DNA from: an uncultured Eubacteriales bacterium
GTDB lineage: Bacteria; Bacillota; Clostridia; Christensenellales; CAG-138
Direction of reading: 5' to 3'
Assembly (NCBI GenBank): GCA_902765005.1
Contig: CACWYB010000004.1
Span: 95,179-159,178, forward strand
DNA: 64,000 nt
The position numbers and the translations under genes are program-made. The notes beneath the pieces were generated by a model. The model was given only the letters and a program-made list of their open reading frames with translations, did no database searches and had not been told where the DNA came from. Below, piece after piece: positions 4,978 through 19,564 of this stretch (its first letter is position 1; every line of letters begins with the position of its first letter).

Positions 4978-6753
4978 ATGAATCCAAGACATCCCGGAAA
5001 ACAAAGCGTGCGGCTGCTGGCGGCCCTGCTTTCCCTCATCCTGCTGGCGGGCAGCGCCTTTGGGCCGGCCCGGACCCGGGCTGACCAGGGCCCTGACCCC
5101 ACCGCGGCTCCCGCTACGCCCACACCCGCCCCCATCCAGGGCGGAGAGGATGTGATCCTGGGCGGTCGGGACGCCACGGGCTATCAGGGCGTCATCGCCA
5201 CGGGCCGGGCCGAGTGCACGGAGATCGGCCTCAACATCCTGAAAAACGGCGGCAACGCTGTGGACGCGGCGGTGGCCGTGGGCTTCGCTTTGGGCGTGTG
5301 CGAGCAGCAATCCTCCGGCATCGGCGGCGGCGGGTTCATGACGCTGCGCCTGGCGGACACGGGGGAGGTCGTCTTCATCGATTTTCGGGACCGGTCCGCA
5401 GCCGCTGCTTCCCTGGACATGTGGACCGTCAACCCGGACGGCTCCGTGGCCAACGAAGAGAATAAGATCGGCGGCAAGGCCGTGGCGGTCCCCGGGGAGG
5501 TGAAGGGCCTGCTCTATGCCCTGGAGCGATACGGCACCATGAGCAGGGAGGAGGCCATGGCCCCGGCCATAAAGATGGCGGAGGAGGGCTTCACCGTGTC
5601 CCACATCACCAGCCGGGACATCAAGGACGCCTACCGGGCCATCATCCGGTACGACAGCACCTCCGAAATCTACCTGGACGAGGACCTGATGCCCTTCGAG
5701 GCGGGGGACATCATCCGGAATCCCGATTTGGCGGCCACCTTGCGCCTCATCGCCGAGAAGGGGGAGGAGGTCTTTTACCGGGGCGAGATCGCCGAGAAGA
5801 TCGTCGCCACCGTCCAGGCCGACGGGGGCTGCCTCACCCTGGAGGACTTTGCCAACTACGACATCCACGTGACCGAGCCCGTTCACGGAACCTATCGGGG
5901 CTACGACATCTACAGCTCCAACCTGCCCAGCTCCGGCGGCACCATCATCATCGAGATGCTGAACATCCTGGAAAACTTCGACGTGGCCGCCCTGGATATG
6001 GAGAGCCCGGAATACTTCCACCTGCTTTCCGAGGTCATGAAGCTCTGCTATGCCGACCGGGCCAAGTATATGGGCGACCCGGAGTATGTGGAGGTGCCCG
6101 TGGCGGGCCTGGTCGACAAAGCCTATGCCCAGGGGCTGGCGGACAAGATCGACCTGAAAAATTCCCAAACCTATGGGGCCGGGGACCCCTGGCCCTTTGA
6201 GTCCGATTCCACCACCAGCTATTCCATCCTTGACGCGGCGGGAAACATGGTGGCCGTGACCAAGACAGTGGACGCCACCTTCGCTTCGGCCCTGGTGGCG
6301 GAGGGCACGGGCATCCTGCTCAACGACACCCTCTTCGACTTTTCCACTGACCCCAGCAGCCCCAACGTGGTGGCGGGGAACAAGCGTCCCTTGAGCTCCA
6401 TGAGCCCCACCTTGGTCACGAAGGACGATCAGCCCTTCCTGGCCCTGGGCGCCCCCGGCTCCACCCGGATCATCAGCGGTGTGTTCCAGGTCATCACCAA
6501 GGTCATCGACCACGGCCTGGATGTGCAGGACGCCATCGACGCCGTCCGCATGCACGACGACTTCGGCACGCTGATCCTGGAGCGCCGGGTCAGCGACGAG
6601 ACCATAGACACCCTGCGGCAGATGGGCCATGAGATGAACGTGAGCGAGGTATGGTTCACCTTTCCCTGCGTGCAGGCGGTCCAGCGCCTGCCGGACGGCA
6701 CCCTGCGGGGCGCGGCGGACCCGCGGCGGGACGGCCAGGCGGCGGCCTATTGA
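4978..6753 (+). CDS. ggt: Gamma-glutamyltransferase family protein, Sec-type signal peptide
   Basis: Start set at ATG 4978 (MNPRHPGKQSVRLLAALLSLILLAGSAFG). GGT blocks seen: GGNAVDAAVA and SGIGGGGFM. The nucleophile Thr lies in DSTTSYSILD. At the oxyanion position it reads GAPGS where its paralog reads GSPGG. Confidence 0.85.
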   Translation: MNPRHPGKQSVRLLAALLSLILLAGSAFGPARTRADQGPDPTAAPATPTPAPIQGGEDVILGGRDATGYQGVIATGRAECTEIGLNILKNGGNAVDAAVAVGFALGVCEQQSSGIGGGGFMTLRLADTGEVVFIDFRDRSAAAASLDMWTVNPDGSVANEENKIGGKAVAVPGEVKGLLYALERYGTMSREEAMAPAIKMAEEGFTVSHITSRDIKDAYRAIIRYDSTSEIYLDEDLMPFEAGDIIRNPDLAATLRLIAEKGEEVFYRGEIAEKIVATVQADGGCLTLEDFANYDIHVTEPVHGTYRGYDIYSSNLPSSGGTIIIEMLNILENFDVAALDMESPEYFHLLSEVMKLCYADRAKYMGDPEYVEVPVAGLVDKAYAQGLADKIDLKNSQTYGAGDPWPFESDSTTSYSILDAAGNMVAVTKTVDATFASALVAEGTGILLNDTLFDFSTDPSSPNVVAGNKRPLSSMSPTLVTKDDQPFLALGAPGSTRIISGVFQVITKVIDHGLDVQDAIDAVRMHDDFGTLILERRVSDETIDTLRQMGHEMNVSEVWFTFPCVQAVQRLPDGTLRGAADPRRDGQAAAY

Positions 6754-6794
6754 GTGGAAACAACTTGTATAAAAAAGATATAAAGGAGAAAAAC

Positions 6795-17397: not shown

Positions 17398-18482
17398 GCG
17401 GCAAGCGGCTGGCTCTACAATGGGGGTGCTTGGCCCTCTCCCTTCTTTTGGTCCTGGGAGCAGGCATTCTCGCCCGGCGCCAAAGGCGGCTGCCCTATGC
17501 TCAAAAGATGGAGGAAGCGGCCCGGCTCCATGAGCAGGCGACGGCCCTCATCCGGGAGGAGAAGGCGAGGCGTGGCGTGGCCCTTGCAGCGGAGGATACC
17601 CTGGGCATCGGCCTGCTGGGCTACGATTTCACCGCCATCATGACCACCGCCGCCGGCCTGGAGGAAAAGCGCACCAGCCAGCTGCCAGACTTTGCCGCCC
17701 TCTGCGTCCGCTACTTTTCGGAGGCGGGTCTGCAGCCCGGGGACCCGGTGGGCGCCAACTTCTCCGGCTCCTATCCGGGGCTCAATCTGGCCGCCCTTTG
17801 CGCCGCGGAGGTCATGGGCTTGGACCTGCGCTATTCCACCTCCGTGGGCTCCTCTAAATATGGGGCCAACAACCCGGAGTATACCTTTCCCGAGATGGCC
17901 AAAACCCTCTATGACGCCGGCCTTATCTCCGCCCTGCCCGTGCTGGTCACCATGGGCGGCGGGGGCGACATGGGTTACAATATGATGGCCTATGTGCTGG
18001 AAGAGGAGGAGGATCTGCAGGCGGTGGAGGCCCTGAAGCGCCGTTTGGCGGCGGCGGACCTCACCCCGGCGGCCATCGAAAGCTTTGGGCAGGATATTGA
18101 GCTCCATGAGCGGCTCTACGGAAACATCAAGGCCTTCGTGAACGCCGGGGGCAACAGCCTGGGCCTGGGCTCCTCCGACAACACACGCATGCTCTCCCTG
18201 GGCAGCGGACTTCTTGCGCCGCAGCCCATCCAGATCAGCCCCAACAGCGGCCTTACGGAGCGATATTTTGCCAAGGGCATCCCCACCATCCACCTGCTGA
18301 ATGTGCGCGCCCTCTGCACCGAAAGCGGCATCCCCTTCGACCCGAAGACCCTGCCGGCCATCGGCGCCGCCGCCATGTACTATGGGGGCACCTACGCGCC
18401 CCTTTCCCTCCTGGCCCTGCTCCTTGCCACGGGGGGAGCGGCCGGATTCTTTCTTTTGAAGCGAAGGGAGGCGAAGCCATGA
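17394..18482 (+). CDS. Poly-gamma-glutamate system accessory protein, paralog 1 (bitopic: N- and C-terminal TM)
   Basis: ATGA overlap with pgsC. From memory it resembles the 'poly-gamma-glutamate system protein' family that accompanies pgsB/pgsC when pgsA is missing. The C-terminal TM plus KRREAKP tail is seen directly. Confidence 0.65.
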   Translation: MSGKRLALQWGCLALSLLLVLGAGILARRQRRLPYAQKMEEAARLHEQATALIREEKARRGVALAAEDTLGIGLLGYDFTAIMTTAAGLEEKRTSQLPDFAALCVRYFSEAGLQPGDPVGANFSGSYPGLNLAALCAAEVMGLDLRYSTSVGSSKYGANNPEYTFPEMAKTLYDAGLISALPVLVTMGGGGDMGYNMMAYVLEEEEDLQAVEALKRRLAAADLTPAAIESFGQDIELHERLYGNIKAFVNAGGNSLGLGSSDNTRMLSLGSGLLAPQPIQISPNSGLTERYFAKGIPTIHLLNVRALCTESGIPFDPKTLPAIGAAAMYYGGTYAPLSLLALLLATGGAAGFFLLKRREAKP

Positions 18483-19564
18483 AAGAGCGCAAGCTCCTTT
18501 GGCAGGGCCTGGTGGCCCTGGCGCTGATCCCCTGCGTGCTCCTCATCTACCTGATGGGCCGCCGGGTCAGGCTCCCCTATGCGGACGAGATGGAATCCGC
18601 CGCCCGGCTCCACGGGCAGGTGGTGGCGGCGGTGAAGGCCGAGCGCCTGCGCCGGGGGTATGAGCTGGTTCCGGAGGATCGGCTGGCCCTGGGCCTGATG
18701 GGCAACCAGATTTCCGCCATCACCACCTCTCTGGGCAGCGAGGAGGCCAAGCGCACCTCCCAGCTGTCGGACTTCGCGGCCCTGGCCGTTCGCTATCTCC
18801 ATGAGGCCGGGGTCCGGCCCGGGGACAGGATCGGCGCCTGCTTTTCCGCCTCCTTCCCGGGGGTGGACCTGGCGGTGCTCTGCGCGGCGGAGATCATGGG
18901 CCTGGATATAGAATACAGCGTGTCCATCGGCTCCTCCAACTACGGGGCCAACCTGCCGGGCTACGTGCTGCCGGAGATGATCCTCACGGCCCACCAGGCG
19001 GGGCTCCTGTCCACCCTGCCCCAGCTCATCACCATGGGCGGCGACGGGGACGCGGGGGAGAACATGATGGCCTATATGCTGGAGGACGAGGAGGACATCC
19101 GGGAGATCGAAGAGATGCAGGCCCGGCTGAATGAGGAGGGCCTGTCCCTGACTTATTATTCCCAGGGCTTCGAGGCGGACGTGCTGGATCGGATGGCCCG
19201 CATGGGGGATATTGCGGCCTTCGTCAACGTGGGCGGCAACATCCTGGGCATGGGCGACACGGACGCCGCCGTGAACTTCGGCCAGGGGCTCATGCCTCCT
19301 GCGGACCCCCGCATCGGCCCCAAGAGCGGCCTGGTGGAGCGGTATCTGAGCCTGGGCGTGCCGGTGATCCATCTGCTGAACATCAAGCAGCTCTGCGCCG
19401 AGACCGGCATCCCCTACGACCCGGTGACCCTGCCGGAGCCGGGGACCTCCGGGGTGTATTACCACCGGGATTATTCACGTCTCGCCATCGGGCTCGTCTT
19501 CGCCGGGGCCGCGATCGCCATCCTGGCCATCCAGCTTCTGTCCCGCCAAAAGCGGGAGGCCTGA
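18479..19564 (+). CDS. Poly-gamma-glutamate system accessory protein, paralog 2
   Basis: ATGA overlap with paralog 1. It is collinear with paralog 1 over the full length; shared blocks include RLPYA, KRTSQL.DFAAL, LCAAE.MGLD, GSS.YGAN, TMGG.GD, NMMAY.LE.EED, ER..LG.P.IHLLN and GIP.DP.TLP. The C-terminal TM is followed by SRQKREA. Confidence 0.65.
   Translation: MKERKLLWQGLVALALIPCVLLIYLMGRRVRLPYADEMESAARLHGQVVAAVKAERLRRGYELVPEDRLALGLMGNQISAITTSLGSEEAKRTSQLSDFAALAVRYLHEAGVRPGDRIGACFSASFPGVDLAVLCAAEIMGLDIEYSVSIGSSNYGANLPGYVLPEMILTAHQAGLLSTLPQLITMGGDGDAGENMMAYMLEDEEDIREIEEMQARLNEEGLSLTYYSQGFEADVLDRMARMGDIAAFVNVGGNILGMGDTDAAVNFGQGLMPPADPRIGPKSGLVERYLSLGVPVIHLLNIKQLCAETGIPYDPVTLPEPGTSGVYYHRDYSRLAIGLVFAGAAIAILAIQLLSRQKREA

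Follow-up and report, generated by a model that had tools for sequence, protein, structure and literature searches.

A PgsA-less poly-gamma-glutamate synthase linked to a putative polymer turnover and glutamate re-uptake module in an uncultured clostridial bacterium

To our knowledge, the biology of poly-gamma-glutamate (PGA) is known almost entirely from Bacillus, through pgsBCAE and capBCADE and through the enzymes encoded by pgdS and ggt. The presence of a synthase and a degrading enzyme in one locus is already established, both for pgsBCAE-pgdS with ggt and for capBCADE, and the gamma-PGA secreted by B. subtilis is later degraded and used as a source of glutamate. A further combination, the PgsB-PgsC-TIGR04332 trio, is already recognised by NCBIfam. 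Outside the Gram-positives, Fusobacterium nucleatum is a published PGA producer (Candela et al. 2009, as cited in PMC4497714 and PMC3815933). Here we describe a block of genes at positions 4978-19564 of a 64,000-nucleotide stretch of DNA (the window; contig CACWYB010000004.1 of assembly GCA_902765005.1) from an uncultured rumen Eubacteriales bacterium, in which a TIGR04332-type PGA synthase lies beside two gamma-glutamyltransferases (GGTs), a zinc hydrolase, a permease and a lipoprotein of the DUF6305 family. We read the block, with a probability of about 0.6, as a PGA synthase coupled to a module for extracellular turnover of the polymer and re-uptake of glutamate.

The synthase genes occupy the 3' end of the block. 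PgsB, the ligase subunit (15816-16985), scores 322 bits with TIGR04012 against a cut-off of 222.7, and PgsC, the membrane subunit (16975-17397), is recognised by PF14102 with 87.8 bits against a cut-off of 27. Adjoining them are two tandem genes of the TIGR04332 "poly-gamma-glutamate system" family, the first starting at 17361 or 17394 and ending at 18482, the second at 18479-19564, each scoring 256 bits against a cut-off of 100. The two TIGR04332 proteins each have terminal membrane helices and are about 50% identical to one another; comparison of the sequence with the PDB found no relative. PgsA/CapA (PF09587, PGA_cap) is absent from the block, and PgsE is also not in the locus. Three genes of the PGA_cap family, which is a broad one, are located on other contigs of the source genome.

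The linkage of this synthase to the neighbouring genes was followed well beyond the genus. An alignment of DUF6305 was scanned against 185,579 species genomes and yielded 538 relatives, from which 79 loci were kept; 74 of these lie outside the window's own clade, and 30 loci have complete flanks. Across the 74 distant loci the gene order is nearly always preserved, with the gene for the AstE-like hydrolase present in 71, the DctM-like permease in 70, a GGT in 65 and, by tblastn, a peptide of about 50 residues in 60, always between the permease and the hydrolase. The core of the module is a GGT, a DUF6305 lipoprotein, a DctM-like permease, a two-helix peptide of about 50 amino acids and a membrane-anchored AstE/M14-like zinc hydrolase. 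PgsB-PgsC-TIGR04332 lies within 10 kb of the module in 25 of the 30 loci with full flanks.

The core adjoins PgsB-PgsC-TIGR04332 in Oscillospiraceae, Lachnospiraceae, Clostridium, Fusibacter, Peptoniphilus, Fusobacterium, Varibaculum and spirochaetes. Named carriers include Oscillibacter valericigenes Sjm18-20, [Clostridium] aminophilum, C. symbiosum, C. tetanomorphum, C. lundense, Fusibacter, Pseudoflavonifractor and Flintibacter, and further carriers are Varibaculum timonense and metagenome-assembled genomes (MAGs) of Peptoniphilus, Fusobacterium and several Spirochaetota. The Fusobacterium MAG locus (L107) reads GGT, DUF6305, DctM-like permease, peptide, AstE-like hydrolase, PgsB and PgsC, at which point the contig ends. 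One contig (L048) is labelled "Prevotella sp. CAG:279"; its locus is near-identical, both in gene order and in sequence, to loci from Subdoligranulum and Gemmiger bins, and its GGTs group with theirs, so the label is probably a binning or labelling error.

Co-occurrence was examined in 400 evenly sampled genomes of the phylum. DUF6305 was found in 44 of them, PgsB in 34 and TIGR04332 in 28; PgsB and TIGR04332 occurred together in 26 genomes, PgsB alone in 8 and TIGR04332 alone in 2. DUF6305 was present in 26 of the 28 genomes with TIGR04332 and in one of the 8 with PgsB and no TIGR04332. In 20 of the 26 genomes with both, the genes for DUF6305 and PgsB are no more than 10 kb apart. This linkage is genuine and widespread, and it is specific to PgsA-less synthases of the TIGR04332 type. 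An earlier note on this DNA had proposed an island for gamma-glutamyl polymer rather than a bare synthase operon, and had made the proposal depend on whether the neighbours stay with pgsBC in related genomes; they do, in congeners and far beyond the genus, and the proposal is upheld on this point.

Within the genus, 20-kb regions around pgsB were fetched from relatives and the window proteins were mapped onto them. The source MAG (2.38 Mb, 77% complete) has its closest relatives among rumen and gut MAGs labelled "Christensenellales / uncultured Clostridiales". The open reading frame (ORF) listing combined with Pfam and NCBIfam scans gave 15 genes in the block, one fewer than the 16 counted earlier; all are on the + strand, as previously described, and are separated by short gaps (-26 to 161 bp). 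All 15 are colinear in five congeneric genomes, whose PgsB is about 80% identical. Neither the upstream CadA and phosphoesterase genes nor the downstream iorBA genes are found beside the block in these five congeners, and the conserved unit is therefore 4978-19564.

Both edges of the block coincide with the ends of this synteny. On the left a terminator-like hairpin at 4873-4900 (+ strand; -16.5 kcal/mol, z -3.4) is followed by a promoter-like site at 4911-4940. Since the run of + strand genes begins 5' of 4978 and includes CadA and the phosphoesterase, the left edge is defined by this hairpin and promoter-like site (4873-4940), not by a switch of strand. On the right, a bidirectional intrinsic terminator at 19588-19617 is common to the block and the convergent iorBA genes. 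It has a 13-bp G+C stem between an A-run and a T-run, with folding energies of -35 and -31 kcal/mol on the two strands (z -5.9 and -4.5), and this strong predicted fold in both directions agrees with the bidirectional terminator called before. At 58-66%, GC content is no different inside the block than in the flanks and gives no signal of horizontal transfer.

Four more divergent congeners, with PgsB about 46% identical, have a reduced block. It opens with a GGT and a second permease, the latter accompanied by a 48-aa peptide and an AstE-like gene; DUF6305 and the DctM-like permease come next, then a 49-aa peptide, another AstE-like gene and a short M14-like lipoprotein, and PgsB, PgsC and a single TIGR04332 gene close the series. 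These congeners (for example L027 6956-13954, genome G002) have two permease-peptide-AstE sets and a third, shorter M14-like lipoprotein directly 5' of pgsB. A short AstE/M14-like gene adjoining pgsB recurs in many distant loci and is missing from the window.

Some genes of the block have a narrower distribution. The second TIGR04332 copy, GGT1 (4978-6753) and the gene for a Sel1-repeat protein were seen solely in the close group of species to which the window belongs; every other locus examined has a single TIGR04332 gene. The Sel1-repeat protein (6795-7247; PF08238 86 bits, 3 repeats) is cytoplasmic, without a signal peptide, and its gene is present in the five congeners and was undetected in the other 74 loci. 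The Tat genes and the NagA-like gene discussed below are add-ons in a few lineages.

Transcription of the block as a single operon was considered and rejected, because a conserved terminator and promoter lie inside it and because many other genomes transcribe the pgs genes and the GGT/permease genes in divergent directions. On the same grounds we regard the block as at least two linked units. The internal terminator, a + strand hairpin at 15669-15698 (-23.8 kcal/mol, z -4.25) followed by a U-run, lies between the AstE-like gene and pgsB. It is followed in front of pgsB by a promoter, TGGACA-17-TACAAT, at 15754-15782. Both elements are kept in the window and the five congeners (six species): the hairpin sequence varies among species with the stem-forming repeat retained, and the promoter hexamers are invariant with a spacer that varies. 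A promoter-like site at 7299-7327 suggests that GGT1 and the Sel1 gene may form a third unit. The island thus comprises at least two, and probably three, transcription units: A (4978-7247), B (7407-15654) and C (15816-19564).

In the five congeners (L021-L025) only 7-8 nt lie between the end of the conserved -10 box (TACAAT) of the pgsB promoter and the ATG, which suggests a leaderless pgsB mRNA in these species. In the window (15754-15818) about 27 nt more separate the -10 box from the pgsB ATG, and this interval has no obvious Shine-Dalgarno sequence.

The two GGTs of the block, GGT1 (PF01019 536 bits, TIGR00066 515 bits) and GGT2 (10185-12032; PF01019 466 bits), are the only GGT genes in the genome, at its 77% completeness. 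The best match of GGT1 in the PDB is E. coli GGT (2e0w), with an E-value of 3e-118, and GGT2 matches the same structure with an E-value of 4e-94. The corresponding values for CapD (3g9k) are 7e-43 and 1.5e-37, and both proteins match the GGTs of E. coli, B. licheniformis and B. subtilis far better than they match CapD. By sequence the two classify as canonical, lid-less GGTs of the Bacillus type and not as CapD-like enzymes, so that the parallel with CapD-type anchoring drawn earlier is not borne out. Compared with E. coli 2e0w, both lack the 10-residue lid loop, which in the E. coli and human enzymes covers the active site, and both align without gaps to B. licheniformis 4y23; the length of the lid segment is identical in all 90 GGTs from module loci. 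An open, lid-less active site is associated with the use of PGA by B. subtilis GGT, and lid-less GGTs therefore fit a polymer substrate.

The autoprocessing Thr nucleophile of the family (MEROPS T03) and the glutamate-binding residues equivalent to E. coli R114, T409, D433, S462, S463 and G483 are kept in both enzymes. GGT2 retains all the catalytic residues, and GGT1 has three substitutions, N411 to D, Q430 to T and G484 to S (E. coli numbering). The oxyanion-loop motifs are, as the earlier note stated, GAPGS in GGT1 and GSPGG in GGT2. Their use as a marker of divergent chemistry was rejected, since the second position is freely G, A or S, with no pattern, across the 90 GGTs of the loci. The oxyanion loop of GGTs acts through backbone amides.

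The difference in predicted export route described for the two enzymes was confirmed: GGT1 has a Sec-type signal, and GGT2 has a Tat signal (PF10518 and TIGR01409) with the twin-arginine motif SRRSFLKG. GGT2 is the conserved GGT of the system, encoded directly 5' of DUF6305. It falls in a well-supported monophyletic clade of Tat-signal GGTs together with those of O. valericigenes and two Lachnospiraceae MAGs. GGT1, on the other hand, belongs to a long-branch clade of six rows, all from the window's own species group. In loci whose GGT has no Tat signal, the system GGT is usually a lipoprotein.

The genes preceding GGT2 encode a Tat system, with two TatA/B/E-family genes of the TatA type (8563-9075 and 9116-9283; PF02416 56 and 45 bits), and TatC (9258-10076; PF00902 191 bits), and GGT2 itself supplies a twin-arginine substrate. 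Tat genes are present in exactly those loci whose GGT has a Tat signal, and the order NagA-like-TatA-TatA-TatC precedes the Tat-signal GGT in O. valericigenes and the two Lachnospiraceae MAGs. A single TatC was found in the source genome, and a scan of all its ORFs identified GGT2 as the only one with a canonical SRRxFLK signal. These observations are suggestive of a Tat translocon dedicated to one substrate, and are no more than suggestive because the genome is incomplete and looser RR motifs exist.

The NagA-like protein, which has the amidohydrolase fold (7407-8546), scores 180 bits with TIGR00221, under the cut-off of 226. In comparison with B. subtilis NagA (2vhl), H63 is replaced by E, E136 by R, H202 by N, H223 by D and D281 by G; five of the six metal or catalytic residues are changed, and the protein does not qualify as a NagA-type GlcNAc-6-P deacetylase. 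The same degeneracy marks it in each of the three lineages with TatA-TatA-TatC and a Tat-signal GGT. Because the catalytic residues are lost in all orthologues, we regard it as a conserved pseudoenzyme that travels with the Tat genes. It may be an export chaperone for GGT, which is a guess.

The zinc hydrolase (14515-15654; PF24827 37 bits, cut-off 25, and a weak match to Peptidase_M99) belongs to the AstE/AspA (M14-like) group, with an HxxE...H zinc site and a catalytic Glu on a carboxypeptidase-like fold. All of 37 homologues keep the zinc ligands H85, E88 and H217 and the catalytic E282 unchanged. Its AlphaFold2 (AF2) model has a mean predicted local distance difference test score (pLDDT) of 92, and includes an N-terminal membrane helix at residues 3-31; the catalytic domain is predicted to face outward. 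The top Foldseek matches were 3cdx, 6twm, 2qj8 and 4wck, and the closest folds are AstE/AspA, DoeB, Csd4 and the M14 carboxypeptidases.

The earlier note had also related this enzyme to PGA hydrolases of the PghP type, a protein described as carboxypeptidase-A-like (PMC4497714). The AstE/M14 superfold was confirmed, and a close relation to PghP was not: the PghP family PF05908 gave no Pfam match, PghP was outside the top 50 of the Foldseek search of the PDB, and a phage PGA hydrolase in BFVD matched with an E-value of only 3.9e-3 (TM-score 0.29/0.42). Enzymes of the AstE/M14 group hydrolyse N-succinyl-Glu, N-acetyl-Asp and the bond of gamma-D-Glu-meso-diaminopimelate (mDAP), and gamma-Glu-Glu is a close analogue of N-succinyl-glutamate. 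From this family chemistry, a predicted activity as an amidase of gamma-glutamyl-glutamate or of PGA ends is reasonable.

The remaining genes of unit B encode the DUF6305 lipoprotein (12108-12992; PF19823 157 bits), the DctM-like permease (13047-14333) and a 51-aa two-helix membrane peptide (14347-14502). The permease, of the ion-transporter superfamily, scores 58 bits with PF06808 against a cut-off of 23.8 and 20 bits with TIGR00786 against a cut-off of 268, and its identity is 95-97% in congeners and 52-84% in the distant loci. The peptide has no Pfam match. It is 98-100% identical in congeners and, with its fixed position in the distant loci, is a real gene and a conserved partner of the permease.

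The DUF6305 lipoprotein consists of a lipobox, a coiled-coil, a Pro/Ala/Glu linker and an alpha/beta domain of 160 residues. In the AF2 model (pLDDT 95.8) the latter is a single three-layer alpha/beta domain. Sequence comparison with the PDB returned noise only (E at least 0.18), and the Foldseek search found generic three-layer alpha/beta folds, the best being ThiM (TM-score 0.55), with SGNH hydrolases at about 0.4. An SGNH-like esterase, considered for its GQS motif after strand 1, was rejected, as the DxxH block is lacking and the TM-score is low. The invariant motifs of the family are GQSAD, GxSxKGLGAAG and HxGGxxRRGxLSD, and in the model the invariant residues are in loops or short helices after strands 1, 3 and 4. 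Loops after strands are the usual ligand site in such alpha/beta folds. In this model the invariant Lys and Arg-Arg would suit a carboxylate ligand, and DUF6305 is a candidate extracytoplasmic binding partner of the permease.

Relatives of these genes in other settings bear on what the set may do. The source genome carries a paralogous cassette on contig C23 (locus L123 3851-9129, - strand), in which an exported C69 peptidase is accompanied by a DUF6305 lipoprotein and a DctM-like permease, and further by a two-helix peptide of 57 aa and an AstE-like hydrolase. It is followed by a PpiC/PrsA-type rotamase, and is without GGT or pgs genes. Here the same four-gene unit accompanies another Ntn-type peptidase, which suggests that the unit is a hydrolase-plus-uptake device. 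More distant DUF6305 paralogues, of about 195-240 aa, occur in genomes that have DUF6305 and no PgsB. One such paralogue lies directly 5' of a HisKA sensor kinase and a DpiA-like response regulator, beside Opp-type ABC genes. This arrangement is seen at L112 7857-10426 and L118 6798-14144, and also in L111, L113, L115 and L116. The N-terminus of the kinase has one hydrophobic stretch before the HisKA domain, as judged by eye only. In L118, genes for an M20 peptidase, an amino-acid permease and a GGT are found upstream of the DUF6305-kinase genes. Together the C23 cassette and the kinase-linked paralogues point to DUF6305 as a putative extracytoplasmic ligand-recognition partner in amino-acid or peptide scavenging.

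A broader proposal can be made from these comparisons, tentatively and with rather less confidence than the reading of the block as a whole. DUF6305, the DctM-like permease and the peptide of about 50 residues may constitute a previously unrecognised binding-protein-dependent secondary transporter, working in tandem with a membrane-tethered zinc hydrolase; its extracytoplasmic part would be a small lipoprotein of one alpha/beta domain where other systems have a two-lobed DctP/TAXI protein. DUF6305 would then be a new family of surface receptors that bind glutamate or gamma-glutamyl ligands on behalf of transporters and two-component systems alike. With PgsB, PgsC, TIGR04332 and a lid-less GGT, these proteins would form an eight-gene "anaerobe-type" PGA system distinct from pgsBCAE.

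According to the turnover and re-uptake reading, the units would divide the work as follows. Unit C, from its own promoter, would encode a PgsA-less synthase, in which PgsB, PgsC and the two TIGR04332 proteins, by family membership, make and extrude PGA. Unit B would supply an outward-facing module for processing and uptake. The lid-less GGT, with an open site able to accept a polymer end, would remove gamma-linked glutamate from PGA or gamma-glutamyl peptides, and the membrane-anchored zinc hydrolase would cut a related bond in the polymer or its fragments. The DctM-like permease, the 51-aa peptide and DUF6305, as the binding or receptor part, would re-import glutamate or short gamma-glutamyl peptides. 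The GGT of this lineage would be exported in folded form by the dedicated TatA-TatA-TatC, perhaps with the NagA-fold pseudoenzyme as export chaperone. Unit A, which is confined to this species group, would add a second, divergent exported GGT and the Sel1-repeat protein. The net effect would be a cell that produces an extracellular polymer of glutamate, trims it or sets it free, and recovers the glutamate.

Several observations weigh against this reading. PgsC scores 88.1 bits with TIGR04011, just under the cut-off of 96.45. DUF6305 has no recognisable binding-protein fold, and its invariant Ser, His, Asp and Lys residues could equally mean an enzyme. The Fisher test for co-occurrence of DUF6305 and TIGR04332 (p ~7e-27) ignores the kinship of the genomes. 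Finally, in Bacillus both ggt and pgdS are dispensable for PGA synthesis, and the presence of DUF6305 in 26 of the 28 TIGR04332 genomes is a stronger association than would be expected of an optional salvage function. The module may for this reason serve synthesis, export or anchoring instead.

The last point leads to the alternative that survives best, which we nevertheless consider unlikely. The module would here mature or anchor a capsule, the GGT linking PGA to peptidoglycan by a CapD-like transpeptidation, the AstE/M14 enzyme, in the manner of Csd4, trimming stem peptides so that acceptor sites arise or releasing chains, and the DctM-like set or TIGR04332 taking part in export. The co-occurrence is very tight precisely with synthases that are without PgsA and PgsE in the locus, and a module integral to a surface polymer would explain its near-obligatory presence. 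Most of the system GGTs are, moreover, lipoproteins held at the membrane surface, and the zinc hydrolase has among its best structural matches Csd4, a carboxypeptidase for gamma-D-Glu-mDAP. However, the GGTs resemble hydrolytic GGTs much more closely than CapD, carriers of the DctM family are secondary transporters of small solutes and not exporters of polymers, and the four-gene unit works with a dipeptidase elsewhere in the genome.

Slightly less probable again is a supply function, in which the module would leave the cell's own polymer untouched, harvest glutamate from gamma-glutamyl or N-acyl-glutamate compounds of the environment (glutathione, folyl-polyglutamates, foreign PGA, peptidoglycan fragments) and feed it to PgsB, a ligase with a high demand for glutamate. 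Such a function is consistent with the second copy of the four-gene unit in the same genome, away from PGA genes and with a C69 peptidase in place of the GGT. It is likewise consistent with the distant DUF6305 paralogues beside peptide ABC transporters, an M20 peptidase, an amino-acid permease and a GGT, and with the 5 of 30 full-flank loci in which the module has no PgsB within 10 kb. On the other hand, the module's PGA-linked subfamily hardly occurs outside genomes that have a TIGR04332-type synthase, and PgsB genomes of the other type are without it, which a general supply of glutamate would not predict; the lid-less GGTs are also of the type known to accept PGA. A chance neighbourhood of unrelated genes sharing a strand is very improbable, for although the co-directional run extends 5' of 4978 and the block contains at least two transcription units, the same genes recur in the same order in dozens of lineages of several phyla, with flanks that differ even within the genus.

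If the turnover and re-uptake reading is true, surface or secreted PGA and its recycling would be common in gut anaerobes, with a bearing on capsule biology, nitrogen storage and host interaction. Many anaerobes carry a set that is different from that of Bacillus, larger, and strikingly fixed, in which a PgsA-less synthase is accompanied by two enzymes, a lid-less exported GGT and a zinc hydrolase, and by a dedicated permease of three parts. Among the carriers are cultured Clostridia of gut and rumen (Oscillibacter valericigenes, [Clostridium] symbiosum, [C.] aminophilum, Pseudoflavonifractor and Flintibacter). The reading offers testable functions for three uncharacterised families, TIGR04332, DUF6305 and the 50-aa peptide, and the window may present a natural case of a Tat translocon reserved for one substrate that has no cofactor.

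The comparison with known systems can now be drawn. In the searchable literature we found no paper that describes the accessory module (GGT, DUF6305, DctM-like permease, peptide and AstE-like hydrolase) or that reports how specific it is to synthases of the TIGR04332 type. The tripartite ATP-independent periplasmic (TRAP) transporters (DctPQM; TCDB 2.A.56) resemble the uptake part in combining a large permease, in the window a DctM-like one above the Pfam threshold, with a small membrane partner and an extracytoplasmic lipoprotein. They differ in each component: the window permease is far under the NCBIfam DctM cut-off; the four-helix DctQ subunit, which Pfam and NCBIfam scans did not find among the block proteins, has its place taken by the 51-aa two-helix peptide; and no DctP partner was found in the same scans, the lipoprotein being a single DUF6305 domain of 160 aa instead of a two-lobed protein of the DctP/TAXI fold. 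The zinc hydrolase shares its zinc site, catalytic Glu and superfold with the AstE/AspA/DoeB deacylases and the Csd4/Pgp1 DL-carboxypeptidases, whose substrates are of the N-acyl-glutamate type or gamma-D-Glu amides. Unlike these enzymes, it is membrane-anchored, predicted to face outward and about 40-60 residues longer, and it is less than 20% identical to solved members.

Among PGA loci, capBCADE of B. anthracis resembles the window in encoding a GGT-family enzyme together with the synthase, and differs in having CapA and CapE, both lacking from the window locus, and no transporter or zinc hydrolase. B. subtilis pgsBCAE, with the adjacent pgdS and the unlinked ggt, has in common with the window the PgsB/PgsC ligase core, a depolymerising activity encoded beside the synthase and an exported, lid-less GGT able to strip glutamate from PGA. 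In place of PgsA and PgsE, however, the window has TIGR04332 proteins, and in place of the NlpC/P60 enzyme PgdS it has an AstE/M14-like zinc hydrolase. Its GGT is physically linked to the synthase, and its cluster includes a dedicated permease set (DUF6305, the DctM-like permease and the 51-aa peptide), which the B. subtilis cluster does not. In the TIGR04332-type PGA cluster of NCBIfam, PgsB, PgsC and TIGR04332 are adjacent as they are here, where they score above or near the cut-offs; the window differs from it in the duplication of TIGR04332.

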